From assembly GCA_965248925.1 (NCBI GenBank), contig CBDFLE010000006.1:416001-480000 (forward strand): a stretch of DNA of 64,000 nt, given 5' to 3'. Below, piece by piece: positions 44,986-58,643 of the stretch (its first letter is position 1; every line of letters begins with the position of its first letter). The notes beneath the pieces are model-generated. The model did not search any database, was not told the DNA's origin, and was given only the letters and a program-made list of their open reading frames with translations. This DNA is from Candidatus Multivoradales bacterium (lineage in GTDB: Bacteria > Acidobacteriota > Thermoanaerobaculia > Multivoradales > J023). Position numbers and translations under genes: made by a program.

Positions 44986-45190
44986 ACCGCGGTCCCCGAG
45001 CCAGCCGGCTAGCCCGGATCCAAGGTCGAAAAAGGTGCCCGTACGAGTGCCAGGTCATCTGCTTGACAAGGTTATCGACCCGGCGGACGAGGACGGCATC
45101 TTCTAGTTACTGTGATAGCGTGAGGAAACTCTTGTATTGGGCTTGCTTGGCGGGATCTTGGCGGGCCTGGAATCTTGGTGGGTTTGGAAA

Positions 45191-45736
45191 ATGCTGTCGG
45201 CTGAAGTTGACGTCCCCTTCAATGAGCTGTTTATCCAAGCCTATCCGCGAATTGTCGGATTCTTCAAGCGCTATCCGAGAAACTCCGCAGAAGACAGCCG
45301 TGACTTAGCGCAGGAGACCTTTCTGCGGCTCTATCGAAAATGGCGAAACGAGGGTACCGAGAAGGTGCTTTCGGAAAGGTTGCTGATCACCATCGCCCTC
45401 AATATCCAGCGCAACCGGCTACGGGAATTCGCCGGGCCGCGGCATCCGATCGGTCAGATACCGCTCGAGGATGTCCACGCCGCGACCGGCCCCGGACCGG
45501 TCAAAGAAACGCTGGACCGGGAGAGCCTCGAACTGACCCGTCTGGCACTCAAGGAGCTGTCGGAACGCCAGCGCCAAACGCTGCTCTTGCAAGTCCAAGG
45601 ACATAGCCTCGATGAGATCTCCCGCATCCTACAGATCAAGCCGGGAAGCGTCGGGCACCATATCTTTCAAGCTCGAAAGAAGTTGAAGGATGCCTTGGGA
45701 GCACTCTCACCATGGGTGACAGGAGACTCGTCATGA
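45191..45736 (+). CDS. ECF sigma factor
   Basis: DLAQETFLRL, LITIALN, LSERQRQTLLL..G.S..EIS.IL.IK.GSV..HIFQAR; start may be 45137. Confidence 0.9.
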   Translation: MLSAEVDVPFNELFIQAYPRIVGFFKRYPRNSAEDSRDLAQETFLRLYRKWRNEGTEKVLSERLLITIALNIQRNRLREFAGPRHPIGQIPLEDVHAATGPGPVKETLDRESLELTRLALKELSERQRQTLLLQVQGHSLDEISRILQIKPGSVGHHIFQARKKLKDALGALSPWVTGDSS

Positions 45737-46479
45737 GCGGATTTTCCGGATCTCAAGACACACTGCTGAAAGAAATCATCCATCAAGAGCAGGCGCAGGG
45801 AGGCGCCCATCTGCGGGGTGCAGAAGTTGTCGCTTATCACGAGCAGCGCCTGGGGCCGGAGGAGCAGTCCGCAGCCCGCGAGCACCTGGTGCGCTGCCCT
45901 GAATGTCGCCACCTGCTCCTCGCCCTAGGGGATACAGCAGAGGATGTCACCTCGGCCCCAACCCCCGCCGAGCCGACCCGCGAGGCGCTGGCGGAGTTTC
46001 ATGCCAAGGTGCGAACCGCGGGAACAGAGTTACCTACTCGATCCCAGCCGATCGGCTGGTGGAAGATCGCAGCGATTGTTTTGGCGACCTCGAACTTGCT
46101 CCTCCTCGGCTGGATCAGCCTCCGCGAGCCCCCGCCCACGGCGGTCGCCGGCAATCTACTGATCGAGGACATCTACCCCATCGACGACCCCTGGCGAGAC
46201 GGCAGTCCAACGGTGATTCAGCTCAATCCCGAGGTCGAGCAGATAGGTTTTCTACTCCATCTCGGCAGCGACGCGGCGAACTCCCGACGCGAGATCCAGC
46301 TGCTGAACAGTGCTGGCGAAGTGCTGTGGCGTAGCGAGTCACTCACCGTCGACGCCCACGGAATCGCCAGCGTTGCGGTGCCCGCGGCACTGTTGCCCGC
46401 CGCTCGGTACCGGCTGCGACTCGGCGGCGACTCAGCGCAAGAATTCGCGGTGACGATCGAGACCTTCGCCCGGCCATGA
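45733..46479 (+). CDS. zf-HC2 anti-sigma factor with TM and extracytoplasmic beta domain
   Basis: HLVRCPEC zinc motif; TM; ATGA-coupled to the sigma. Confidence 0.85.
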   Translation: MSGFSGSQDTLLKEIIHQEQAQGGAHLRGAEVVAYHEQRLGPEEQSAAREHLVRCPECRHLLLALGDTAEDVTSAPTPAEPTREALAEFHAKVRTAGTELPTRSQPIGWWKIAAIVLATSNLLLLGWISLREPPPTAVAGNLLIEDIYPIDDPWRDGSPTVIQLNPEVEQIGFLLHLGSDAANSRREIQLLNSAGEVLWRSESLTVDAHGIASVAVPAALLPAARYRLRLGGDSAQEFAVTIETFARP

Positions 46480-49355
46480 GGGAACGCTGGCGCCGCTGGA
46501 CAGTGGTGGGCGTGGTGCTGGTCGGGACGGTGTGGGCTGGCCTCGTCTGCGGTCCGGGGTCGCGAGAAGACAGCGGAGAAATACAGGGCCTACCGGTGCG
46601 CGGGGAGTCGAAAAGACTCACTCTAGAGGGCGGCGCGACGGCCGTGTACCGAGTTGCTCTGCCGGTGAATCGCTATCTCGAGGTCGCGGTCGATCAGCAA
46701 GGGGCCGACGTGCTGATCGAGGTCTACGATCCCGAGGGTCTGAGAGTCCTTGAGGTCGACAGCCCCAACGGCACCGACGGCCGGGAAAACATCTCGCTGC
46801 TCAGTGAGACTAGCGGCGACTATCTCTTCGAACTACGATCCCTCAATCCGCCGGGTCGCTCGGGTAGCTTCACTTTGAGCCGTCAGGTGGACCGCGACGC
46901 CAGTGAAAAGGATCGTGCCCGCTTCGCGGTGGAGCGTGCTTTCGCCGCTGCCGAAGAGTTGTTTCGGCGCGGTACCGCCGCCGATCTGACCACTGCCCGC
47001 GAACGCTTTGGCTCGCTGTTGACTCAGTGGCAGAACCTCGGCCTGGCGGCACGGGAAGCGAACACGCAGATGCGGCGAGGCGATACTGAACGAGCCCTTG
47101 GCCTGCACTCAGAGTCGCTGACGGACTATCGTGCGGCCCTCAAACTCGCCGAGTCCCTGGGGGACACCCAGCTCCAAGTGAGTCTCTTTCTGCGCCTCGG
47201 TATAGTGCATTTTAAGATCGGCGAAGCAGAACTGGCAGACGGGTTTTTCCAGCGCTCGCTCGCCGGAGCACGGCAGATATCCTCACCGGCGGACGAGGCC
47301 GCTACGCTTCACAATCTGGCCCTCGCCGCCACCTCGAACGGCCGTTTCCGCCACGCGGTCGAACTCTACCGCCAGGCCCTGGGAATCTTCGATCGTCTCC
47401 AGCTGACCGCCGATCAGGCAAGAGCTTGGAGCAACTTGGGAGAGGTCTACAGCCGGCTTGGCGAGACCCGGCCGGCGGCTCTAGCATTCGAGCGTGCCCT
47501 CGAGCGCTTCCGTTGGCTCGGCGACCGGCGCGGCGAGGGCATTGCCCTCAACAATCTCGGCCTGCTGCACGCACGCGGTGGTGAGCTGGCGACCGCCGAG
47601 CAGATCTTCAGCGAAGCCCTGCAACTCATGCGACAAGTGGGTGACACCGCCAGTGAGGCCCGGACCGAGAACAATCTTGGCTGGATCGCGGGCCTACGTG
47701 GCGCCTTGGACGAGGCCACCTTCCACTACCAGCGAGCCCTAGGAATCGCCCAACGCCTCGGCAATCCGCGCACTGAGGCCAATCTGCTGCTCAATCTCGG
47801 CTGGCTGGCCGGAGCACGGAAGAATCTGGAAGAGTCCCTCCGACTGCACCGCGACGCCCTGGCCCGCTTCCAGGCCCTTGGCGATCCAGTCCAGCAAGCA
47901 CAGGCTCTCTATGGCATCGCCATGGCAGAACATCAAGCGGCAAGAGAAGTCCTGGCACAGGCGGCCTGCGAAGCCGCCATCGAGCAAGTCGAAACAGTCC
48001 GCCAATACATGGCCGGAGATACCCTCGGCATGGCTTTCTTTGCCACCCGCCAAGACCTCTACGACTTCTACATCGACCTGCTGATGACCCGTCACCAGCT
48101 CGACGGTGGCACCACCTACAGCCGCGCCGCCTTCGCGGCTAGCGAACGCTCCCGAGCGCGCGGCTTTCTCGACCTTCTGGCGACTGCGGAACAGGCCTGG
48201 TCGGCCGCATCACCGGTCGGTCTCGAGGCGATCCGTCAGCAGATTCTGGACGACGAGACCGCGCTCCTGCACTACCATTTGGGGTCGCCCCACAGCTACG
48301 TTTGGGTGATGACTCGGAGCAGCTTCGAAGTGCGGATCCTGCCGCGATCGGCCGCCCTCGAAGCTGTGGCGCGGCCCGCCTTGCAGCTGCTCGAGAACAG
48401 CCATCAACGTCGCTACCGGGAAGAGGCGCAGACTCGGCTTCGTCAACTGGCTTCGGCAGTCCTGTGGCCCGCCCTCGAAGGAGTGAAGGCGAACCGACTG
48501 CTGATCGTCGCCGATGGCGCGCTGGCCCGCCTGCCCTTTGCCGCCCTACCGATCCGCGGCGAGTGGCCAGGCGACCGGCCTCTGCTGGCCGCCTACGAAG
48601 TGGTCCATTTGCACTCCGCCTCGACCCTGCTGGCACTCCGTCGCGCCCGCGCTGGCCGACCTCCCGCCAAGGCTCGCCTCGCGGTGCTCGCCGACCCGGT
48701 CTACGCTCCTTCTGACCCTCGCCTGCCGGCACCGCTGGCCACCACCACTCCACCATCGGGCTCTGAGTTCCCGCGGCTGGTGGCGGCCAGCGCCGAGGCG
48801 GCCGCGATCAGCGCCTGGATCCCGGCTGATCAGCGCCTGGTCGCCACCGGAGCCGAAGCCTCCCGACAATTGGTCCTCAGCGGGCGGCTGGCCGATTTTC
48901 GGGTGCTCCACTTCGCCGTCCACAGCGTGCTCGACAGCCAGAGCCCGGATCGCTCATCCCTAGTGCTCTCGCGCTGGGACGCCGAGGGCCGGCCGGTTGA
49001 CGGATTCCTTCGCTTGCGGGACCTGCGGAACCTGAACCTACGAGCCGACACAGTGGTGCTGAGCGGCTGCAGGACAGCTTTGGGCCGGATCTGGGACGGC
49101 GAAGGCATTGTCGGCTTGCCGCAGGCGTTTCTGCTGGCCGGAGCTCGCCAAGTGATCGTCTCGCTGTTTCGCGTTCGCGACCGGGCAACGGCCGAGCTGA
49201 TGGGTCGTTTCTACCAGCGCCACTTCGGCGCCGGCATGCCGGCAGCAGCGGCCCTGCGACATGCTCAGCTTTCGATGGCCGGCGACCCGCGGTGGCAAGC
49301 ACCCGCGGATTGGGCCGGATTCGTCCTCGAAGGCGATTTTTCCCTCTCCCCCTAA
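46476..49355 (+). CDS. CHAT-domain/TPR protein with N-terminal anchor and PPC-like domain
   Basis: VDQQGADV...VDSPNG; multiple TPRs (NLG repeats); SERSRAR, LHFAVH and VLSGCRTALG catalytic motifs, WAGFVL.G. Confidence 0.93.
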   Translation: MRERWRRWTVVGVVLVGTVWAGLVCGPGSREDSGEIQGLPVRGESKRLTLEGGATAVYRVALPVNRYLEVAVDQQGADVLIEVYDPEGLRVLEVDSPNGTDGRENISLLSETSGDYLFELRSLNPPGRSGSFTLSRQVDRDASEKDRARFAVERAFAAAEELFRRGTAADLTTARERFGSLLTQWQNLGLAAREANTQMRRGDTERALGLHSESLTDYRAALKLAESLGDTQLQVSLFLRLGIVHFKIGEAELADGFFQRSLAGARQISSPADEAATLHNLALAATSNGRFRHAVELYRQALGIFDRLQLTADQARAWSNLGEVYSRLGETRPAALAFERALERFRWLGDRRGEGIALNNLGLLHARGGELATAEQIFSEALQLMRQVGDTASEARTENNLGWIAGLRGALDEATFHYQRALGIAQRLGNPRTEANLLLNLGWLAGARKNLEESLRLHRDALARFQALGDPVQQAQALYGIAMAEHQAAREVLAQAACEAAIEQVETVRQYMAGDTLGMAFFATRQDLYDFYIDLLMTRHQLDGGTTYSRAAFAASERSRARGFLDLLATAEQAWSAASPVGLEAIRQQILDDETALLHYHLGSPHSYVWVMTRSSFEVRILPRSAALEAVARPALQLLENSHQRRYREEAQTRLRQLASAVLWPALEGVKANRLLIVADGALARLPFAALPIRGEWPGDRPLLAAYEVVHLHSASTLLALRRARAGRPPAKARLAVLADPVYAPSDPRLPAPLATTTPPSGSEFPRLVAASAEAAAISAWIPADQRLVATGAEASRQLVLSGRLADFRVLHFAVHSVLDSQSPDRSSLVLSRWDAEGRPVDGFLRLRDLRNLNLRADTVVLSGCRTALGRIWDGEGIVGLPQAFLLAGARQVIVSLFRVRDRATAELMGRFYQRHFGAGMPAAAALRHAQLSMAGDPRWQAPADWAGFVLEGDFSLSP

Positions 49356-49488: not shown

Positions 49489-49692
49489 ATGAGCGAGATC
49501 GAGAGACCCGCTGAGACCCACTCCGAGAGCCGACTGACCACGGAGCACCCACCATCCAACAGCAGCCCCAGTGGCCTGCCAAAGGCCCAAAGGGGCTCCA
49601 TTGGCACCGGGGGAAACACGCCGCAGGAACCTGGCGTGGAAAATGGCCCCCTCACTTCGCCGATCTCCGAACCGCCGGACGGTGGGGATTGA
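49489..49692 (+). CDS. Small (67 aa) acidic Pro/Ser/Gly-rich peptide
   Basis: AAGGGAG RBS; MSEIERPAET...GSIGTGG...PPDGGD between two proteases. Confidence 0.55.
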   Translation: MSEIERPAETHSESRLTTEHPPSNSSPSGLPKAQRGSIGTGGNTPQEPGVENGPLTSPISEPPDGGD

Positions 49693-49714
49693 GCTGAGTT
49701 GGAAAATCGTCCCA

Positions 49715-51091
49715 ATGTACGCGAAGCACACCATGTCCAACGCTGTCGATGCCACCACCGGCTGCTCCCTCCACCCTCGGCCTCGCCGCTGCGCCTGGCG
49801 CTGGTTGTTGCGCCGAAATCCGGCAAGGGCTCTCGGCCTGCCGCTCGAGGAGCTGGCGCAGGCGATGGCCTTGCCGGCGGGACTCGATACTCGGGATCTG
49901 GCCGACACCGGTTGGGCGGTGGTGTTCCCCGAGGGTTGTGAACCGGAGCGCCGCCGGGCGCTCGCGCCCTTGCTCAACCTACGCCGGGAGCAGGCTGGGT
50001 GCCGCTATCGAGAGCTGATCTACCGACCGCGAGAAGGGGCCGGCGCTTTTCTCGCCCGCCATGGCGTCGCGCCGGGCCAGGGGCCGGTGGAGCCGCAGCG
50101 CCTGCCCTACTATCTCCTGCTCGCCGGCGACCCGCAGGAGATTCCTTTCGCGGTACAGCATTGCCTCGATCTGCGCTATGCCGTCGGCCGATTGCATTTT
50201 CCGCGGCGCTCGGGGGCAGGGGCCGACGATGAAGCTCTGTCCCGCTACGCGCACACAGTTCTGGCAGTGCAACTCGGCAACCTCCATCGCGGTCGCAGGG
50301 CGGCACTATTCGCACCCAGGTTTGGCGATCTGGTCAGCGAATTGATCAGTGATGAGCTGGTACCACCGCTCACGGCAGAGCTGAAGGCCAGCTGCTGGAA
50401 GGTGGACACACTGCTCGCAGCCGATGCCAGCAAGCACCGCCTCCGCGACCTCTTCCAAGTCGAGGCCGCACCGGCCTTGCTATTCGCCGCCACCCACGGT
50501 CTTAACTTTCCCCCCGCTCATGCCCAGCAGCTGAGACGCCAGGGTGCCCTGGTTTGCCAGGGTTGGCGATCCGGAGAAGCACCTCGTGGAGATCAAGTTC
50601 TCGCCGCCAGCGACCTCGGCGCCCCGGCGGGCGGCCTGGTGGCACTGCTCTTTGCCTGCTTTAGCGCCGGCACGCCACGGCAAGATCGTTTCTCTCTCCT
50701 CCGTCAGCCACCACGGCTGGCAAGGCAAGATTTCCTCGCCCGCCTGCCCCTCGACTTGCTGGGCGCCGAAAATGGCGCCCAGGCGGTCTTGGGCCACGTC
50801 GATCGGGCCTGGACCTTCTCCTTTCGCTGGGCCGAGGGCTTTCCCCTGGTCACTATGTTCCGAGATGTCGTCCACCGGATGCTGGCCGGCGAGCCGGTGG
50901 GCGCCGCCATGGAGGCCATCGGCCGCCGTACTGCGGGTCTCGCCGCCGACCTCCTCGACCCGGCGATGCGCGAGGACGCTGAAGCTCTCGAGTCGCTGTG
51001 GACGGCCTATCACGATTGCCGGAGCTTCGTTCTCCTCGGCGATCCGGCGATTCGCTTGGCAGCTGCGAGCGATGCCGAGGGAGACCCATGA
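49715..51091 (+). CDS. Gingipain/C25-like clan CD cysteine peptidase (no signal peptide)
   Basis: PYYLLL.GDP..IPF..Q...AVGRL, ATHG (His), FACFSAG (Cys), GHVDRAW, LLGDPA; start uncertain. Confidence 0.8.
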   Translation: MYAKHTMSNAVDATTGCSLHPRPRRCAWRWLLRRNPARALGLPLEELAQAMALPAGLDTRDLADTGWAVVFPEGCEPERRRALAPLLNLRREQAGCRYRELIYRPREGAGAFLARHGVAPGQGPVEPQRLPYYLLLAGDPQEIPFAVQHCLDLRYAVGRLHFPRRSGAGADDEALSRYAHTVLAVQLGNLHRGRRAALFAPRFGDLVSELISDELVPPLTAELKASCWKVDTLLAADASKHRLRDLFQVEAAPALLFAATHGLNFPPAHAQQLRRQGALVCQGWRSGEAPRGDQVLAASDLGAPAGGLVALLFACFSAGTPRQDRFSLLRQPPRLARQDFLARLPLDLLGAENGAQAVLGHVDRAWTFSFRWAEGFPLVTMFRDVVHRMLAGEPVGAAMEAIGRRTAGLAADLLDPAMREDAEALESLWTAYHDCRSFVLLGDPAIRLAAASDAEGDP

Positions 51092-53097
51092 GCGCCAGGC
51101 GCCCATGGGGCCGGCACAGCCGCTTCGATCGGGGCCGGGCGCTGCTGGTGACCGTTGCCAAGGCGACAGATCCGCCTTGGCTCGGCAGAGTTCTGAGGGA
51201 GGGCGGCAAAGCCTTGCAGGACGTGCTGGTAGATAGCCAACGCTGTGCCTACCACCCCGGCAACGTGATGCGCCTCGACGGCCCCGGCGCCAGCCTCAAG
51301 ATGGTGGACACCGAGCTCGAGCGTCTGGTTGAAGAAGCACGGCAAGGAGACACGGTGATTTTCTATTTCGCTGGTCATGGGAAGCGGGAACTCAACAATG
51401 GAGCCATGGCGCTATCCCTCTGCCTGCACGGCGGCCAACTCCTTTCACCGAGCGCCTTGCAGGCAAAGTTGGATTCCCTGGCCGAGAGGCTGGTCGGCGG
51501 CAAGTTGGTCATCATTCTCGATTGTTGCTGGGCCGGGGCATTGAACCTTCCAGCACCTCCTTTGCCAGGAGCGGCTAGCCCGCCAGCGATTCAGATCCTC
51601 TTCGAGCCTATAGAAAGGGGAGGGGGCCGGGTCGTGTTGGCCGCGGTGAGCGCCGATCAGCAGGCGATGGTGCCTGCCCGTCGCCCGCAGAGCCTGATGA
51701 CCGGCTTTCTTGTCGATGGACTGCGGGGCCAGGCCGGTGGAGCGCTTAGCGGGCGGCTCGGTAGTTGTGTGATCGAAGTCCTCTCCTGGATGCGGTGGCT
51801 GAACGGGTGGAGTCGCCGCTTGCAGGATCGGGGTTGGGGAACGGTGCGGGTCTTCGAACTCTTCGAGTTCGTCAGCCGCCAGGTCGAGAGAGAAGCCCAT
51901 CGGCAAGGCCTGGCGATTCACACGGTGGTGCTCAAGGCGGACGTGCGCCGCAACTTCGCCCTCGCCCTGCGACTCCCGAGCCTCTGGCTCTGTCTGCTAA
52001 TCCTAGCGGTCTTGGCTGCCGCTCTGGCCCTGCTCTACTGTCCCGAAGTAGAGCTCGGGCTGCGCGGCCCGCCGGTGGCCACCCTCGGAGCCCAAGTGTT
52101 GATCGAAGTGCGCGCCGATCGCTGTGTTGGCGGTGAGCTTGGCCTGGTCGCTCGCGCCGCGGCGGGAGGCGGCTGGTATCTCATCGGCACCCGCCGCATC
52201 ACGACCGCGGGGGTCTACCCCTTCGCCTTTGAGCCCGCCACCGAAACTCTGCAGGGAGAAGACTCCTATCAGCTGCGGGCCGTGCTCAGCCAACAGGCGC
52301 TGCCTCCAGGACCGTTCTCCCTGCCCCCGACCGCCGGTCGCTGGCGCCGATTGCTGATCCGACTGGCGCAAGTTGCCGGGGTCGACCCTCCGCCACCGGC
52401 CAGCATCTCCCCACCTACGGAGTTGCGCCTGGGGGCGATAGAAATCCTCAGCATCAACGGACAAGACCGAGCAGCCGCCCAACCGTCTCAGGCGGTGCCG
52501 GCGCTCGCCAGCGTCGCTGGCGTGGCCCACAACTTAGAGGGACAGCGGGTCGAGCTGCGGATCCGAGCACCAGGAGCCTCCGCGGTAGAGAGTCGGAGGG
52601 TAGCGCTGGTCGAAGGCGGCCGCTGGCAAGTCGCCTCTGTGCCACTGCGCGACGCCTACGCCTGGCATCCCCAAGATGTCGCCCTCGAGGCACGGATCGA
52701 GCTTGTCGGCGTCGAACCCTTCGTCTCCGCGGCCTGGAATCTCCGACTCGAGCCGCCGCGAGCTTGGATCATTGCTGCCGCCGACTGGACGCGCGGCGAG
52801 CAAGACTGTCGGCTACCCCCTTGGAGTAGCTTCGAGATCCGCGGCAGGGCACTGCATGTCCTCCCAGGAGAGGAGGCTTGTGTGGCGATCCTCGGCGAGG
52901 GTAAGACTACCCAAACCGGGCTGTGGTGCCGGCGGGCGGAGATAGACCCGGGCGGTCGCTGGGAGACGCGCATCGAAATCGCCGATGGCGAGCGTTTCCA
53001 GCTCTTCGCCGCGGTGTGCGCGAGGTGCCCGGATCGCCGCGGCCTGGCCACCCTGGGGACGGCGCAGCTCTGTCGGGCGAAAGGCAGCGGGCGATGA
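51088..53097 (+). CDS. Caspase-family (C14) peptidase with TM and extracytoplasmic repeat domains
   Basis: FYFAGHG and ILDCC dyad; TM LWLCLLILAVLAAALALL; ATGA-coupled. Confidence 0.85.
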   Translation: MSARRPWGRHSRFDRGRALLVTVAKATDPPWLGRVLREGGKALQDVLVDSQRCAYHPGNVMRLDGPGASLKMVDTELERLVEEARQGDTVIFYFAGHGKRELNNGAMALSLCLHGGQLLSPSALQAKLDSLAERLVGGKLVIILDCCWAGALNLPAPPLPGAASPPAIQILFEPIERGGGRVVLAAVSADQQAMVPARRPQSLMTGFLVDGLRGQAGGALSGRLGSCVIEVLSWMRWLNGWSRRLQDRGWGTVRVFELFEFVSRQVEREAHRQGLAIHTVVLKADVRRNFALALRLPSLWLCLLILAVLAAALALLYCPEVELGLRGPPVATLGAQVLIEVRADRCVGGELGLVARAAAGGGWYLIGTRRITTAGVYPFAFEPATETLQGEDSYQLRAVLSQQALPPGPFSLPPTAGRWRRLLIRLAQVAGVDPPPPASISPPTELRLGAIEILSINGQDRAAAQPSQAVPALASVAGVAHNLEGQRVELRIRAPGASAVESRRVALVEGGRWQVASVPLRDAYAWHPQDVALEARIELVGVEPFVSAAWNLRLEPPRAWIIAAADWTRGEQDCRLPPWSSFEIRGRALHVLPGEEACVAILGEGKTTQTGLWCRRAEIDPGGRWETRIEIADGERFQLFAAVCARCPDRRGLATLGTAQLCRAKGSGR

Positions 53098-54821
53098 CGT
53101 TCCGAGGCGAGAGTCCAACCCGGATGGGAGCGGCACTGCTGCGCCGGCTCGGCGTTTCTCGATTGCGGCTCCCCTGCCGACTGAAGAGGGTGTTGGCGGT
53201 GCTGTGGCCGCTCCTGATGCCGCTGCCCCTGGTCGCCGGGGCGCCAGTTTCCTCACCGGTCAAGGTAGAGATCGTCTCTATCGCCGGGCGGAAGGTGCGG
53301 CAGGTGGTGGAAGTAGAGGCACAGGAGGATATGGCCGGCACCCTGGCCACCATCTCTTCCGGTCTGCCCGAATCCACCTGGGTGCTACAGATTGCCCGCC
53401 GTGAAGTGGGGCAACAGGACTGGCACATCTTGCGCCCTCTGGCCAAGCTCGAGGTAGCGCAACGGGAAATCCAGTGGCGGCTCACCGGGGTGGATTTCGG
53501 TAGCGGCCTGGCCTTTGGCGGCTGTGGTCGCGACTTCGAAGTGATGGCGGTCGCAGCTACCCACCCCCTGCCCCTATCGGCCTTCGGCGAGATGGCCTTG
53601 AGCGCCGCCGCCGCGCTCTCCGCGCCGGTCAAAGTGCACCGCCAGGCGTGCCGCCTGCCGCCGCTACCGGCTCCACAGCCCAACATCCGTATCGCCGAAA
53701 TCGGCACGCGTGCGGTAGATCCCGACAGCAGGTACGAGGTCCGCCTGCAAGAGACCCTCCACGGCGAAGTCATAAAAACGGCCGAAACGGTCGTCAGATT
53801 AGTGGTACAGCCGCTCAACGTGACCGCGAGGTGGGTGATGGAAATGGATCCGCAGATCAGCGGACCACGGTGGACCGGACAGGCTCTGTTCGGGCGCCAA
53901 GGGTTGGATGAGTGGGTGGATTTTCTGGTCTTTGCGGTAGTGACGGATCCGCGCCTACCGACCGGCCGAGGCATCAAACCCGACGAGTGGCGCCGCCTGC
54001 AGCGCCAGTTCTTCCTGGCCACCTCGCCTGCCATCCTGGTGCGCCGGGTCGAGTTGCCCGAGGGAGAGCAAGGCACCCTCGAGATTCTGGCCATCGAAGG
54101 TAAGAGCGTGGCGGAACCCGGCCTCTACTTGGTCGATCGGCTCAGCGGCATTGTCGGCATCCTGCAAGGACATTCCCGATCGCGCAATGAGGATGTTTGG
54201 GTGCTGGCCATGGAGCGACACGGTGACGATGTGTGGCGGGTGCTCGGCAAGGCCTCCATCCGTGACCATCGCTTCTGGCAACTTCCACCCACCACCCTGG
54301 GCAAGCCGGGAGCGCTTATCGACCTGGTCGCCGTGCTGTCGCCACAACCGATTGTCACTTTGGGCTCCGATGCAATAAATCACGAGATATCGATCTCCCA
54401 GCGGGTGCAGGTGATCCTCGACGACCGGTCGCCGGTGGAGCTGCTTTGGACTTGTGTTGGCGGCCAGCAGGCCGCCGAGCTGGAAACCTTGACGGTACCG
54501 CCGTTCGGTGATTTGGCAGGACTGGTCGGCGGACGCCCGCTGGCGCCTGAAGAGCAAGTCACGATCTTCAAGCGGCGGCCTGACAAGGGGCCCTGGCAGC
54601 TCCTCCGTCATGCCAGCTTCGACAGCGAGCAACGCAGCCATTGGTCGGTCTTGCCGGTGGAGCTCGGCCGACCCGGCGAAAGCTTGCTGCTGCTGGCGGC
54701 GATCACCCGTGGCGAGGTGCGCGACCCGGAGAGCGCCGATCCTGGCGCCATCGTACGCCTCTCCCACCTGCTCGAAATCAAGATCAGGAAGACCCGCGGA
54801 GCCTACGGCAGATGCCGGTGA
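53094..54821 (+). CDS. Exported protein with ~4 beta-rich repeat domains
   Basis: Signal-like stretch; repeats starting VEIVSIAG/IRIAEIG/LEILAIEG/VELLWTCVGG; ATGA-coupled. Confidence 0.75.
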   Translation: MTFRGESPTRMGAALLRRLGVSRLRLPCRLKRVLAVLWPLLMPLPLVAGAPVSSPVKVEIVSIAGRKVRQVVEVEAQEDMAGTLATISSGLPESTWVLQIARREVGQQDWHILRPLAKLEVAQREIQWRLTGVDFGSGLAFGGCGRDFEVMAVAATHPLPLSAFGEMALSAAAALSAPVKVHRQACRLPPLPAPQPNIRIAEIGTRAVDPDSRYEVRLQETLHGEVIKTAETVVRLVVQPLNVTARWVMEMDPQISGPRWTGQALFGRQGLDEWVDFLVFAVVTDPRLPTGRGIKPDEWRRLQRQFFLATSPAILVRRVELPEGEQGTLEILAIEGKSVAEPGLYLVDRLSGIVGILQGHSRSRNEDVWVLAMERHGDDVWRVLGKASIRDHRFWQLPPTTLGKPGALIDLVAVLSPQPIVTLGSDAINHEISISQRVQVILDDRSPVELLWTCVGGQQAAELETLTVPPFGDLAGLVGGRPLAPEEQVTIFKRRPDKGPWQLLRHASFDSEQRSHWSVLPVELGRPGESLLLLAAITRGEVRDPESADPGAIVRLSHLLEIKIRKTRGAYGRCR

Positions 54822-57322
54822 GAGCCCTGATATTTCTGGCTCTGCTGGGCTGGCCCGGCCTGGGGCAAGGCCAGCAGCCGATCGCCGGTGGACCAGCGCC
54901 CGCGGCGACTTCGATACATCCCAGCTACGGCCCGCTGATCCATCTTCGGCGCCTCGGCGGGCTCGCCCTCGAGCCTGGGTCGCCGCCGCTTCGCTTGGAT
55001 GCTTACCGCGCCTGGGCGGGGCTCGACGCCGACCTCGAAATCTGGCCACCTTCAGTGCCTGCCGGAAGTGTCTGGGTGATGGTCCAGGGCCGCAGTAGCG
55101 ACACTTGGCTAGCCTACGGGCCCGCCAACCACAGCCAAGGAAGGTGGATCGTGCCCGGCGTTCGTCTCGGTGAAGGCATCGACCAGGGGCGCAGCTACCA
55201 ACTACGGGCGGCGATCCTGCCCGAAGATCTGGTGCCACGCTCCGGTCATCCAGTGGTGGGTTGGCTGGCACGGGCGCTGGTGTTTTCGCCGGCAGTGTCG
55301 ATCAGCGTCGAGCATCGTGCGGTCATACCCCTGCAACCCGCTGGCGCGGCCCGCTTGTGGATCTCGACCATCGATCACCGCACACCAGCAGTGCTCGAGC
55401 CGATGGCAACGGCCGCGGTCGTCGAGGTCGAGGGAACACTCGCTCTTCCAGATGACCTGGCCACAGCAGCAGTGAGCGGCGAATCGCCCCAAGTCTATGT
55501 GGTGGTAAGGCCCGCTGGCGGCAGCGGGCGGCGGGTCTTCGGCCCCGCCGGGATCAGTGGCGGGACCTGGCGGCAGGCCGAAGTAGCGGTGGCGGAAGCT
55601 GGAGAACGGCATTGGCTGCACTACCGGCTCCATGCCGTCTTGGCCTCAGAACCACCGCCGGGGGATCTCGAGAACGATGCCGCCTACAGCCGTTGGCGAC
55701 ACGGTGCAAGGGCGGCTTCCCGCTCCATCGATCTCACCATTCGGCCACGAGAGACACCGCCTAGTCTGCCGGCTCCAGAGATCTACCTCGAGGCAGTGAA
55801 GACCGCCCAAGGCGAAATCCTCGGCGACCAACAACCTGTCTTCGTGCGCACCGACGACCCGATTGTCGAGATCAGCGGCCGGGTGGAGGGCGCGCCTCAA
55901 GGCGCCTATGTCTGGGTGCTCGTTCATTCGCCGAACACCCCGGTCTGGGAGACCCTGGGGCCGGCCCTGCTCGAGCCTCCGCGCTGGCGGCTACCGCTTG
56001 CCGCCGGCAGTCCCCGGAGCCCCGCCACCGGTTCGCGAATGATGGCCATCTTGACCACCGAGGCCCAATTGACAGGCTGGGTGAGGTACGCCTCCTGGCG
56101 GCGCCGGGCTCTGGCGGTTTCAGAAAGCCTGAGCTTGCAGTTCGTGGGCGCTGGCGAAACGCGAGACCAGGGATCTGCCGAATCCAGCCTTAGGATCCGC
56201 CGTGTCGCGGGGACGGTAGTCGGCAAGGCGCCGGCCGAGGCGGCATTGAGCGACGATCCGTCGGTACAAGGTTCCGTCACTGGCCTGCCCGCGGATGCCG
56301 GAGTGTGGGTGGCCAGCCGCCCCCTCAAGGCGCAGCAGTGGGCCCTCAGCGGCCCGGCGCTGATCCACGGCGACCACTGGTACTTGCCACAGGCGCGCTT
56401 TGCCGACGGCACAGAGGCGACCGATCGCCCGGGGGAGTTTGACCTTGTTGCCCTCGTCGCCACCGGTGAGCCACCGGCACCAGCCATCGCCCAGACCGAC
56501 CTACGCTGGCTGGCCCGCGCCACCTCACCGGTAGTGCGGATCCGTGATCTCGATGCCAAGCCGCGGACCCGACAGCGGCGAACATTCACTTTCTGGAGGG
56601 CCTTGCCGATGGATCTATGGCTGCTACCCCTGGCGATCGTGCTGCTGCTGGTTGTCCTGCTCACCCTGGCCTCCCTATTCGAGACGTTCGCTCGCCTCTG
56701 CCTGGACCTCGCCCAGAATGTAGATCGGCTCAGCGTCTACCTGCACCGGCAGTTTGCCTACCTCCCTAGAACTCGGGCCGACGCCTCGGTGATCGGACTC
56801 ATCGTGCTCGCCATAGCTCTCTTTGCCATCTCCGTCTACCTACCCGTTTACACCCAAGTCCTGGCAACCACCTTCAAATTGACCGAAGAGGTGGCGAAAA
56901 GCCTTGCCTTGATGCTGGTCTGCGCCACCGGCCTGGCCGGCATCCTCATTCACTTATCGCTCGAATTCGAAGACCAGGAACGGGCGGGATTTCTGTCCAA
57001 TTTTCTCGCTAGCCTGTGCATGTGCGTGACCCCACTCCTGTGGTTCTTCCAGGCGGTGGTCTACCACCACTTCTACTCGCAACAGCTCGGTTCCGCCGGG
57101 GAGGCGTCCCTGCCCTTCGCCATGGCCCTGGCGGCGTTCTTTATCTCCTTTATCGAAACCCTCGCTTTCTTCTGGGCGACCCGTCTCGGGCTCGGCGTGA
57201 TTACCTGGCTTTGCGTACATCTGCTACTCGCTCCATTGCACCTACTAGCCCGCCTGGCAGAGTTGGCCGGGAAGTCTCGGCAACCTGGCGACATCCACAA
57301 CAAAAGTGAGGCAAGCCCATGA
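54812..57322 (+). CDS. Exported repeat protein (~4 domains) with C-terminal multi-pass membrane region
   Basis: Signal peptide; repeated G...VWV.V...W...GPA...W..P motifs; ~6 hydrophobic helices at the C-terminus. Confidence 0.78.
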   Translation: MPVRALIFLALLGWPGLGQGQQPIAGGPAPAATSIHPSYGPLIHLRRLGGLALEPGSPPLRLDAYRAWAGLDADLEIWPPSVPAGSVWVMVQGRSSDTWLAYGPANHSQGRWIVPGVRLGEGIDQGRSYQLRAAILPEDLVPRSGHPVVGWLARALVFSPAVSISVEHRAVIPLQPAGAARLWISTIDHRTPAVLEPMATAAVVEVEGTLALPDDLATAAVSGESPQVYVVVRPAGGSGRRVFGPAGISGGTWRQAEVAVAEAGERHWLHYRLHAVLASEPPPGDLENDAAYSRWRHGARAASRSIDLTIRPRETPPSLPAPEIYLEAVKTAQGEILGDQQPVFVRTDDPIVEISGRVEGAPQGAYVWVLVHSPNTPVWETLGPALLEPPRWRLPLAAGSPRSPATGSRMMAILTTEAQLTGWVRYASWRRRALAVSESLSLQFVGAGETRDQGSAESSLRIRRVAGTVVGKAPAEAALSDDPSVQGSVTGLPADAGVWVASRPLKAQQWALSGPALIHGDHWYLPQARFADGTEATDRPGEFDLVALVATGEPPAPAIAQTDLRWLARATSPVVRIRDLDAKPRTRQRRTFTFWRALPMDLWLLPLAIVLLLVVLLTLASLFETFARLCLDLAQNVDRLSVYLHRQFAYLPRTRADASVIGLIVLAIALFAISVYLPVYTQVLATTFKLTEEVAKSLALMLVCATGLAGILIHLSLEFEDQERAGFLSNFLASLCMCVTPLLWFFQAVVYHHFYSQQLGSAGEASLPFAMALAAFFISFIETLAFFWATRLGLGVITWLCVHLLLAPLHLLARLAELAGKSRQPGDIHNKSEASP

Positions 57323-58137
57323 AAATGTTTCTCGTCGCTCCTATTGTGCTCATCCTGATCGCCTGCATTATTTGGTATCTTGTCAAACCAGATCCCTGGA
57401 AACCAGAGGGGGAGACCTATCGACGCGACATCTTCCTACTGATTGACCAGACTCCGTCGATAAGCGAAGAGGAATTCGGACTGCTCAAAGACCTAGCCTT
57501 GAAAAAAATAATAAAGCATCTTGGTCCGGGTGATCGGCTCTCTTGCTTCAGCGTTGATGTGGAGTTCACAGAAGCAGATGACCTGATCTTCGAGGCCGCG
57601 GGAGAGTTGCCGAAGCTGCCAGACAACTATCCGGTCGAAGAAACTGATCCATGGCCGGAACGAGCGCGATTGGACCTTGCCCGCCGGTGGGCGTCGTTCG
57701 AGCCCATCCGGGCGGACTGGGTCGAAAAGATTACCGCACTCGAACTCTTACCTCCCACCAAGAGCAGCGACTATTTCCCGGCCATCGAGTATCTGGGCGG
57801 GCTGATGACGACGAGATGCAAAGCCGCCGAGTGCTGGCTGATCGTCCTGGGAGATCTCAAGCATGAGCCCTTGTCTGATCTCGAATCCATGGCCGACGAC
57901 CTAGCCACCCCGAGCTTGTTCACCGGGGTCAAGGCGCGACTGGTGTCGCCTTACGGCACAAACTCCGACGCAGAGCAAAAGAAAATCGAAGGCGCCTGGG
58001 AGAAGTTCTTCCCTCACCCAGACGACCAAGACCATCTATTCAATTCGCTTGTCGGTTTCTCCGGCCTACCCGAAACCAGCGCACCGCGTCCCGAATCCCT
58101 AGCCAAAAACCCTACTGAACCGCAAGGGGGTCCATGA
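57319..58137 (+). CDS. Membrane-anchored VWA-like protein
   Basis: N-terminal TM; IFLLIDQTPS (MIDAS-like DxTxS), SDYFPAI, LIVLGD. Confidence 0.65.
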   Translation: MKMFLVAPIVLILIACIIWYLVKPDPWKPEGETYRRDIFLLIDQTPSISEEEFGLLKDLALKKIIKHLGPGDRLSCFSVDVEFTEADDLIFEAAGELPKLPDNYPVEETDPWPERARLDLARRWASFEPIRADWVEKITALELLPPTKSSDYFPAIEYLGGLMTTRCKAAECWLIVLGDLKHEPLSDLESMADDLATPSLFTGVKARLVSPYGTNSDAEQKKIEGAWEKFFPHPDDQDHLFNSLVGFSGLPETSAPRPESLAKNPTEPQGGP

Positions 58138-58643
58138 TGTCCACAATTCCGAATTCTCCGATCCGTACTCTGGCCAAGACCTCGACCAGGCGCGGCGGGC
58201 CTCGCGGGTCGGCAAAGTTGTTGGGGCTTGCGTTGCTAGTTCTCACCGCTGGTGGCTGCGCTTCAGCCCCTGCGGCCCTCGACGTACAGCCGCGGACCGA
58301 GTTGGTCGCTTGGCAGTTCGACCCCTCGTGTGCTGAGACGCAGCCCTGTCCACGGGTCTACATTCGCGGACGGGCGCCCGCCGGGCTGGCCGTCTTCGTG
58401 GCGGTGGCTCCCCTCACCGCGGCTCCCAAGATGTGGATCCAGCCGCCCATCCTAGTCCGCAGAGACGGCTCTTTCGAAGGTCTTGCCTATCTCGGGTCCG
58501 AAACCCAAGGCGCTGGCCAGAGGTTCCAACTGCTGGTCCTGGCACATCGGGACCCGCAGCGTTTTCGCACCGAGGAAATCTTGACCGACGTCCCCCTCGA
58601 CTGCACGGTCAGCGATCCTGTGACCGTCCAACGAGTCCACTAG
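58134..58643 (+). CDS. Lipoprotein with one copy of the operon repeat domain
   Basis: Lipobox-like AGGC; RGRAP...VFVAV.P...WIQPP...DGSF...LG...G.RFQL.VLA. Confidence 0.75.
   Translation: MMSTIPNSPIRTLAKTSTRRGGPRGSAKLLGLALLVLTAGGCASAPAALDVQPRTELVAWQFDPSCAETQPCPRVYIRGRAPAGLAVFVAVAPLTAAPKMWIQPPILVRRDGSFEGLAYLGSETQGAGQRFQLLVLAHRDPQRFRTEEILTDVPLDCTVSDPVTVQRVH

Follow-up and report, generated by a model that had tools for sequence, protein, structure and literature searches.

The window analysed here is a stretch of 64,000 nucleotides from a Candidatus Multivoradales bacterium of the phylum Acidobacteriota (GCA_965248925.1, contig CBDFLE010000006.1, positions 416,001 to 480,000 of the forward strand). 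At 51088..53097 on its plus strand, to which all window coordinates below refer, lies a gene for a membrane-anchored caspase-like protein of 669 amino acids (ATG at 51088, stop codon at 53095-53097), which an original prediction had described as a receptor-like caspase. The gene is real and its architecture is rare, since the protein database holds an identical 669-aa product (P0002), an orthologue of 671 aa with 86% identity (P0003, encoded on a 5675-bp contig), and one further full-length relative (P0005, with 691 aa, 29% identity and an alignment spanning residues 12-646 at an E-value of 1.1e-23, by phmmer against 1.84 billion cluster representatives). The window protein, P0003 and P0005 all align end to end, and in the searches made here the succession of caspase domain, helix and outer region was found in these three sequences only.

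Residues ~12-296 (51121..51975) form a caspase domain of family C14, clan CD. Pfam PF00656 matches residues 73-150 only, at 22.4 bits, its cut-off being 21.4. Within NCBIfam the top match is NF047832, "caspase, EACC1-associated type," which spans residues 17-215 with an E-value of 1.2e-19 and a score of 70.7 bits, under its curated cut-off of 140; the PADLOC caspase model also matches (E 4.8e-6). The same phmmer search gave 2227 matches at E<=1e-3 and 243 at E<=1e-10; the 150 matches listed comprise the protein itself, P0005 and 148 that are confined to residues 4-246. We aligned the three full-length proteins with 69 of the listed matches, mostly the shorter ones, and found His97, Asp145, Cys147, Gly180 and Gly214 kept in 72 of 72 sequences, P0003 and P0005 among them. 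The dyad residues lie in the motifs FYFAGHG (His97, codon 51376-51378) and ILDCCWAG (Cys147, codon 51526-51528). Position 39 is Asp in 69 of the 72 and Gly in the window protein, P0003 and one other, while P0005 keeps the Asp; this Asp, of an "xDA" motif, probably corresponds to a residue that contributes to the S1 pocket in metacaspases.

An AlphaFold2 (AF2) model built from the 72-sequence alignment has a predicted local distance difference test score (pLDDT) above 90 across most of residues 10-320. A Foldseek search with the modelled protease domain found GSU0716 (3bij, E 1.4e-8), with Arabidopsis metacaspases 4 and 9, MALT1, legumain, and caspases 8 and 9 among the other matches. On both alignment and model, the caspase fold is confident and the His97/Cys147 dyad is present; proteolysis itself is predicted. 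The whole 8.0-Mb genome (G000) has eight C14 matches, a large caspase complement; seven are strong, with E-values of 1e-17 to 1e-24, and lie in open frames of 354-786 codons.

The helix that follows is single. In a Kyte-Doolittle profile (19-residue window, threshold 1.6) the sole stretch above threshold is residues 289-325, with a peak of 2.77, and AF2 places a helix at residues 299-317 (51982..52038) with a pLDDT of 82-84 for the block. Because the last caspase strand is residues 291-294 and the helix starts at 299, the protease would lie about four residues from the membrane at most; Phe290, just ahead of that strand, is conserved in 66 of the 72 aligned sequences. No 19-residue window before residue 289 reaches 1.6, so that no signal peptide is indicated, and the N-terminal "RALLVTV" is strand 1 of the caspase fold in the AF2 model. 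Lysines and arginines in the 30 residues flanking the helix number 5 on the N-terminal side and 3 on the C-terminal side in the window protein, and 6 and 1, counted by hand, in P0005, which at 29% identity keeps the same layout. The window also encodes a TonB-dependent receptor, which marks the organism as diderm, so that "outside" here means the periplasm. The caspase domain is thus very probably cytoplasmic, with the C-terminal region predicted to be periplasmic. A C14 domain, no signal peptide ahead of it and one hydrophobic helix behind it had all been proposed in the original prediction, and all held up, with the catalytic residues properly placed; the receptor topology proposed with them is backed, as far as sequence reaches, by the missing leader, the flanking charges and the layout kept in P0005.

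Beyond the helix, residues 320-669 (52045..53094) make up a predicted periplasmic region of no known family. Pfam gave no match to it even at E<=1, and in particular none to the recognised sensor families CHASE2, ANF_receptor, PBP or WD40. Relatives of the region are limited to P0003 and P0005 by word-indexed search and phmmer together; the word-indexed search alone returned only the protein itself and its 86% orthologue P0003. The region was found in 0 of 40 genomes of relatives, and phmmer against the 48,536 six-frame open reading frames (ORFs) of its own genome gave nothing under E 0.07. In the full-length AF2 model it consists mostly of strands with three short helices at a pLDDT of 22-60, which makes it unusable for a fold search. 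ESM Atlas scores reached at most 0.85, below the meaningful level and so leads only; some of the clusters are immunoglobulin (Ig)-like. We divided the region by eye into three segments, D1 (320-432), D2 (440-556) and D3 (557-669), and pairwise hhalign found no detectable likeness among them that would make them mutual repeats. For the roughly three beta-rich domains suggested earlier, both the strand-rich character and the number are plausible, and at that low pLDDT neither was demonstrated.

Proximity drives the activation of MALT1 and of animal initiator caspases, and caspase dimers are textbook structures. Modelled as two copies of residues 10-296, the caspase domain gave a homodimer with an interface score (ipSAE) of 0.62-0.63 in three runs, against 0.01, 0.00 and 0.00 in three controls; the mark applied to this score is reached by 20 of 30 solved homodimers and by 1 of 23 single chains. 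At least 69% of contacts agreed between runs, and the partner pLDDT was at least 72. The modelled interface is formed by the helix of residues 256-263 and the strand of residues 279-289, antiparallel about residue 284, and is the classic strand-strand dimer of caspases. The model supports a dimer-competent caspase domain and fits activation by proximity. The earlier proposal of activation by induced proximity gains indirect support from a homodimer model that passes its controls with a canonical interface, a result that may partly reflect the model's memory of solved structures.

The nearest kin of the domain point to biological conflict. Among the 72 aligned sequences, C14 is identified in 71, TIR_2 in 12, CHAT in 9, EAD1 in 8, and bDLD3 and EAD7 in 3 each, which is the domain vocabulary of the nucleoside triphosphate-dependent conflict systems described by Kaur et al. 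(PMC7159879, PMC8195603). By its sequence affinities the caspase domain belongs to the EACC1-associated branch of these systems. In one member, EACC1-KrAvs12, a caspase is fused to the sensor Avs12, which tail connector proteins of phages activate; this Avs12-fused caspase cleaves EACC1, the pore-forming substrate of the branch, and Evans et al. built a model of EACC1 together with a caspase-domain dimer (bioRxiv 10.1101/2025.11.14.688446). We fetched 58 related loci and examined 40 frames, leaving out the 18 weaker ones (L034-L039, L054, L056, L058-L067). In only one of the 40, L041, is the caspase domain followed by a hydrophobic segment. This frame (L041:9833-12307, plus strand), from a cyanobacterial metagenome-assembled genome and of the same caspase branch, encodes a segment at residues 368-391, then some 340 residues and about three more segments (730-799). 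Its topology is CHASE2-like, and a guess that it carries CHASE2 gained no support from Pfam, which finds C14 alone.

Translational coupling joins the caspase gene in an operon to a gene (49571..51091) whose product is a C25/gingipain-like, clan-CD protease-like protein; the start of this gene is uncertain, homology beginning at about residue 100 of the frame. The two genes overlap in the sequence ATGA, as do the caspase gene and the next gene downstream, and three further pairs in the cluster (anti-sigma and CHAT; 836-aa and 272-aa; 272-aa and 169-aa). The C25-like protein scores 0.98 against Peptidase_C25 clusters in the ESM Atlas and its paralogues reach Pfam PF01364; its hydropathy profile contains no hydrophobic leader. 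A sequence search of the PDB found no match for either it or the caspase protein.

Four genes follow the caspase gene. The first (53094..54821), with its ATG overlapping the caspase stop, encodes a 575-aa protein with an N-terminal hydrophobic leader and four Ig-like repeats. It overlaps by 10 bases with the second (54812..57322), which encodes an 836-aa protein with a signal peptide-like start, four Ig-like repeats and about six C-terminal hydrophobic helices; the database forms P0155 (575 aa) and P0154 (836 aa) confirm both starts. Next come a 272-aa protein with an N-terminal membrane anchor (57319..58137) and a 169-aa protein with a lipoprotein-like leader ending, by eye, in LTAGGC (58134..58643), neither of any known family. 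P0156, an orthologue of the 575-aa protein, and the caspase orthologue P0003 are encoded on one 5675-bp contig. The C-terminal part of the 836-aa protein (56590-57322, plus strand), with its six or so helices after four periplasmic repeats, has no Pfam match and is a candidate membrane effector or channel. In the 272-aa protein (57319-58137, plus strand), which has no family match at E<=1, a "DQTPS" stretch recalls by eye the metal ion-dependent adhesion site motif of von Willebrand factor A (vWA) domains.

The 575-aa and 836-aa proteins contain between them eight copies of one Ig-like repeat of about 125 residues. Repeat 3 of the 836-aa protein (55760-56149), modelled with AF2, is a beta sandwich with a pLDDT of 73.8 and a predicted template modelling score of 0.70. 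Its top structural matches are to the N-terminal domain of the phage baseplate protein BppU (3uh8, Z 8.5; 9m8o_P, Z 8.8), with numerous Ig V-type domains next in line at Z 6-7.6. As modelled, the repeat has a generic Ig-like fold, and the likeness to BppU is probably that of a common fold only, though a curious one at a putative defence locus. In a search of 5.8 billion proteins the repeat family was found only in the two proteins of this genome and in the orthologues P0156 and P0157 of a near relative, and by this sequence measure it is almost private to the two. Two weak matches in 400 other genomes of the phylum (E 3.2e-4 and 6.7e-4) were taken as chance.

The outer region of the caspase protein bears at most a marginal sequence resemblance to this repeat, and in one segment. 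In hhalign, D1 aligned with the neighbours' repeat profile over 65 colinear columns with a score of 26.3 and a probability of 31.6%, a score that none of 60 column shuffles reached (maximum 13.8). Hidden Markov models (HMMs) of the repeat gave 7.8, 12.4 and 12.9 bits against the outer region, which at genome scale falls short of significance.

The head of the cluster is occupied by a predicted regulatory module. A sigma factor of the extracytoplasmic function (ECF) type, of uncertain start (45137..45736; TIGR02937 at E 6.3e-16, above cut-off) is followed by a single-pass anti-sigma-like protein (45712..46479), identified by profile matches and hydropathy, with a zf-HC2 motif, a transmembrane helix at residues 114-137 and a small outer domain. 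Both of its profile matches lie below cut-off: zf-HC2 at E 4.3e-4 and 20.8 bits against 22.2, and NF052375 at E 1.4e-7 and 31.8 bits against 100. A 959-aa TPR-CHAT protease follows (46476..49355; CHAT at E 6e-61, TPR_12 at E 1.3e-32), its start overlapping the anti-sigma gene; a leader at residues 7-29 predicts export, or anchoring that leaves the bulk of the protein outside. A comparison of the region upstream of the sigma factor gene with the gap between the CHAT and C25-like genes, made for a common ECF-type promoter, gave 37 spaced word pairs, a chance level, and no convincing motif, and a scan for sigma-70 promoters and terminators gave results at shuffle level. The cluster is flanked by ordinary genes for TetR regulators, a TonB receptor and a phosphonate ABC transporter.

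The pairing of proteases recurs elsewhere. Of 201 genomes sampled from the phylum, 8, this one included, have the C25-like family, and this genome has four copies. We compared 11 other C25-like loci, with 12 copies, and in four (L081, L082, L083 and L086) a close relative of the window's TPR-CHAT protein is encoded beside the C25-like gene; three of these further pairs are in this genome, and the fourth is in another genome from the same order. In L083 a single open frame of 1782 codons spans both proteases, possibly a fusion. Some CHAT-domain protein is encoded within ~7 kb in 8 of the 11 loci, and CHAT-SIR2, nSTAND-WD40 and TIR fusions and a TCAD7 domain also occur nearby. The C25-like protein is itself fused to TIR, or lies beside CHAT-SIR2 and nSTAND1-WD40 genes, in three loci from other genomes of the phylum (L084, L085, L088). 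These TIR fusions and CHAT-SIR2 and nSTAND1-WD40 neighbours place the C25-like family among conflict and immunity systems; no description of this branch was seen in the passages of the literature consulted. At L081 (G000:C5:1908000-1927999) a sigma factor and a transmembrane protein of its own stand ahead of the protease pair, and a soluble 679-aa C14 protein is encoded 2.3 kb downstream of the C25-like gene, past a gene on the opposite strand. The same locus encodes another membrane-spanning clan-CD protease (L081:9742-11658, minus strand), with a CHAT domain, a hydrophobic segment at residues 364-386 and an FGE-sulfatase domain.

We suggest that the protein is a receptor-like membrane caspase, in which events outside the inner membrane control the pairing of caspase domains and so the cutting of a nearby target; we put this forward tentatively, as an account that could well be right and is slightly more apt to be wrong. 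The C14 domain would face the cytoplasm, tethered some four residues from the inner membrane, with the 350-residue, probably beta-rich region in the periplasm. Periplasmic events, sensed by the outer region and possibly by Ig-like contacts with the co-translated repeat proteins, would alter the spacing or orientation of two or more copies of the protein. The trigger may be binding of those repeat proteins, which the original prediction had conjectured to cluster the outer domains, or of something that they capture. The cytoplasmic domains could then join by their last long strand, in the manner of canonical caspases, and so be activated. The active caspase would cut a cytoplasmic or membrane-proximal target, for which the C25-like protein and the multi-helix domain of the 836-aa protein are candidates. 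The module of ECF sigma factor, anti-sigma factor and exported TPR-CHAT at the head of the cluster probably switches the set on, and by analogy with related systems the cluster probably serves a conflict response, either defence or cell death.

Several observations weigh against this reading. The known substrate of the nearest caspase branch is missing: EACC1 (PF19953) was found neither among the neighbouring genes nor in a six-frame search of the genome, where nothing exceeded the cut-off and the best score was 18.7 bits elsewhere on the contig. The Pfam C14 score barely exceeds its cut-off, and the replacement of the near-invariant Asp39 by Gly may have altered activity or specificity. By the positive-inside rule the window protein shows little bias (5 against 3). 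The dimer, modelled without helix or membrane, may have passed through memory of solved caspase dimers. As for the proposed partners, D2 and D3 fall within shuffle range of the neighbours' repeat, their scores being reached by 3 and 22 of 60 shuffles, respectively; HMMER ranks the protein eighth of 48,536 ORFs at 12.0 bits (E 0.39; E 0.21 with an eight-repeat model); and P0005 gives no match with the repeat HMM. Finally, the 11 other C25-like loci include none with a relative of either the membrane caspase or the four proteins encoded downstream, so the link of the caspase to the C25-like gene rests on this locus.

We weighed four alternatives. The most durable, which we consider unlikely while granting it real weight, is a constitutive, tethered processing protease: the outer region would be a structural subunit of an envelope complex, built with the Ig-like repeat proteins, the 272-aa anchor and the lipoprotein, and the caspase would mature or turn over the cytoplasmic parts of that complex, with no signal crossing the membrane. 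The tight translational coupling and the four envelope proteins encoded downstream fit such a complex, as do an outer region with no recognisable ligand-binding sensor family and a repeat with the generic Ig-like sandwich common in structural envelope and phage baseplate proteins. Less easily accommodated are the nearest caspase relatives, which are signalling and conflict proteins fused to TIR, EAD or death-like domains, and the position of the cluster behind an inducible ECF switch; the dimer-competent interface, too, suggests regulated rather than constitutive activity.

Regulated intramembrane proteolysis would instead have the TPR-CHAT or another periplasmic protease trim the outer region and a site-2 protease cut the helix, freeing the caspase to the cytosol. 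The layout of the protein is that of single-pass anti-sigma factors, an exported TPR-CHAT protease is encoded three genes upstream, and the anti-sigma protein DdvA has been proposed to act through CHAT cleavage and then RseP (PMC11506125). The scan of the cluster's proteins turned up no site-2 protease, however, and 4 of the 11 other loci have the CHAT-TPR and C25-like pair but lack this caspase, so that the CHAT protease does not need it as its target. We regard release by this route as quite improbable.

The caspase fold might also be a catalytically silent scaffold, a pseudo-protease adaptor that brings the C25-like protease or others to the membrane. We give this little credence: Asp39 has indeed been lost (Gly here, Asp in 69 of 72) and the domain is divergent (22.4 bits in Pfam; 70.7 bits against the NF047832 cut-off of 140), but His97, Asp145 and Cys147 are kept in 72 of 72 sequences, including P0003 and P0005, and P0005 keeps Asp39 too. 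A reversed topology, with the caspase outside the cell and the C-terminal region in the cytoplasm, is barely credible, since no leader precedes the 290-residue folded domain, charge bias favours an inside N terminus in both the window protein and P0005, and the C-terminal region resembles, marginally and in D1, the repeat of exported neighbours, even though the same cluster encodes an extracytoplasmic clan-CD protease, the exported TPR-CHAT, and published TMHMM calls are given as correct in ~77-78% of cases (PMC3501461).

A bolder extension of the receptor-like membrane caspase joins the three clan-CD proteases in a relay across the envelope. The exported TPR-CHAT protease would sense an insult to the envelope, such as phage attack, free the ECF sigma factor, and trim or rearrange the Ig-like outer domains; the caspase, dimerised or released, would then activate a cytoplasmic C25-like zymogen or open the six-helix domain of the 836-aa protein, and the cell would be killed or arrested. 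We rate this chain of events as a long shot. If true, it would amount to a bacterial "extrinsic apoptosis" pathway with a death receptor-like initiator caspase. Should outside-in activation of the caspase itself hold, receptor-driven caspase activation would not be an animal invention, and bacterial conflict systems would have gained a new type of sensor. Should it fail, the locus would still document that exported TPR-CHAT and C25-like proteases recur as a pair, so far unstudied.

The receptor-like class of architecture, with caspase, transmembrane helix and extracellular part, is already in print (2012, 2020, 2021), a point that the original prediction did not mention, and the closest comparison is with the EACC1-associated caspases, of which at least 33% have transmembrane helices and some combine these with an extracellular PBP domain (Kaur, Burroughs, Iyer & Aravind, 2020, PMC7159879). 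As in System 4 of that paper, the window protein has an N-terminal constant caspase (residues 12-296) and a variable C-terminal part (the helix at 299-317 and residues 320-669). It departs from the two-gene EACC1 system in scoring below the NF047832 cut-off, in having no EACC1 gene and in having lost Asp39; its 5' neighbour is C25-like, and its outer domain is of no known family.

Cyanobacteria have metacaspases with transmembrane helices and, in Trichodesmium, a metacaspase-CHASE2 receptor (Asplund-Samuelsson et al., 2012, PMC3501461), and transmembrane orthocaspases such as C14-TM-WD40 proteins have been proposed as initiator-like receptors (Bhattacharjee & Mishra, 2020, PMC7475262). Both papers put such proteins forward as receptor-like "initiator" caspases. 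The window protein shares with these membrane meta- and orthocaspases, in its predicted layout, an intracellular caspase, a transmembrane helix and an extracellular domain. The cyanobacterial proteins carry recognised CHASE2, ANF_receptor or WD40 domains and are described in those papers as single genes, whereas the window protein has a family-less outer region and shares its operon with two further clan-CD proteases and the Ig-like repeat proteins.

A third group for comparison is the EACC2-caspases. They have an extracellular C-terminal domain behind transmembrane helices, with TM/CHASE2 arrangements and ECF sigma neighbours, and a stimulus-induced autopeptidase model has been put forward for them (Kaur et al., 2021, PMC8195603). 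Caspase, outer C-terminal domain and a nearby ECF sigma factor are common to both. Unlike them, the window protein has no room for an N-terminal EACC2, because its caspase fold starts at residue ~12. DUF1822, the TPR-type protein of EACC2 neighbourhoods, was not found among the cluster proteins scanned, and the window's sigma factor comes instead with a putative zinc-binding anti-sigma (ZAS)-type protein and TPR-CHAT.

That combination recalls DdvS/DdvA of Myxococcus xanthus, in which a sigma factor of the ECF type and a zinc-finger, single-pass anti-sigma protein with a periplasmic TPR-CHAT control an adjacent island of cyclic oligonucleotide-based antiphage signalling system (CBASS) and CRISPR defences (PMC6061681, PMC11506125). 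The genes at 45137-49355 (plus strand) encode what look like the same parts, an ECF sigma factor, a zinc-finger single-pass anti-sigma-like protein (its matches below cut-off) and a TPR-CHAT protein. They differ in that the TPR-CHAT here is a separate, leader-bearing protein not fused to the anti-sigma protein, a "split" form, and that the genes downstream encode proteases and Ig-like envelope proteins rather than the CBASS or CRISPR components described for that system. In structure, the best matches of the protease domain are GSU0716 (3bij), AtMC4/9, Yca1 and MALT1 (Foldseek E 1.4e-8 to ~1e-6), with which it shares 11-15% identity, and none of which is a single-pass membrane protein with an outer domain.

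To our knowledge, receptor-like bacterial caspases have been proposed from computer surveys since 2012, and none has been taken to the bench. Against this background the locus offers a compact test case, with a caspase at the membrane whose model is dimer-competent, co-translated candidate partners and substrates, and an identifiable ECF on-switch. What it adds to the known systems is a caspase with a family-less outer region, with neither EACC1 nor EACC2 and without Asp39, that is translationally coupled to a C25-like protease and to nearly private Ig-like repeat proteins and is placed behind a split DdvA-like switch.

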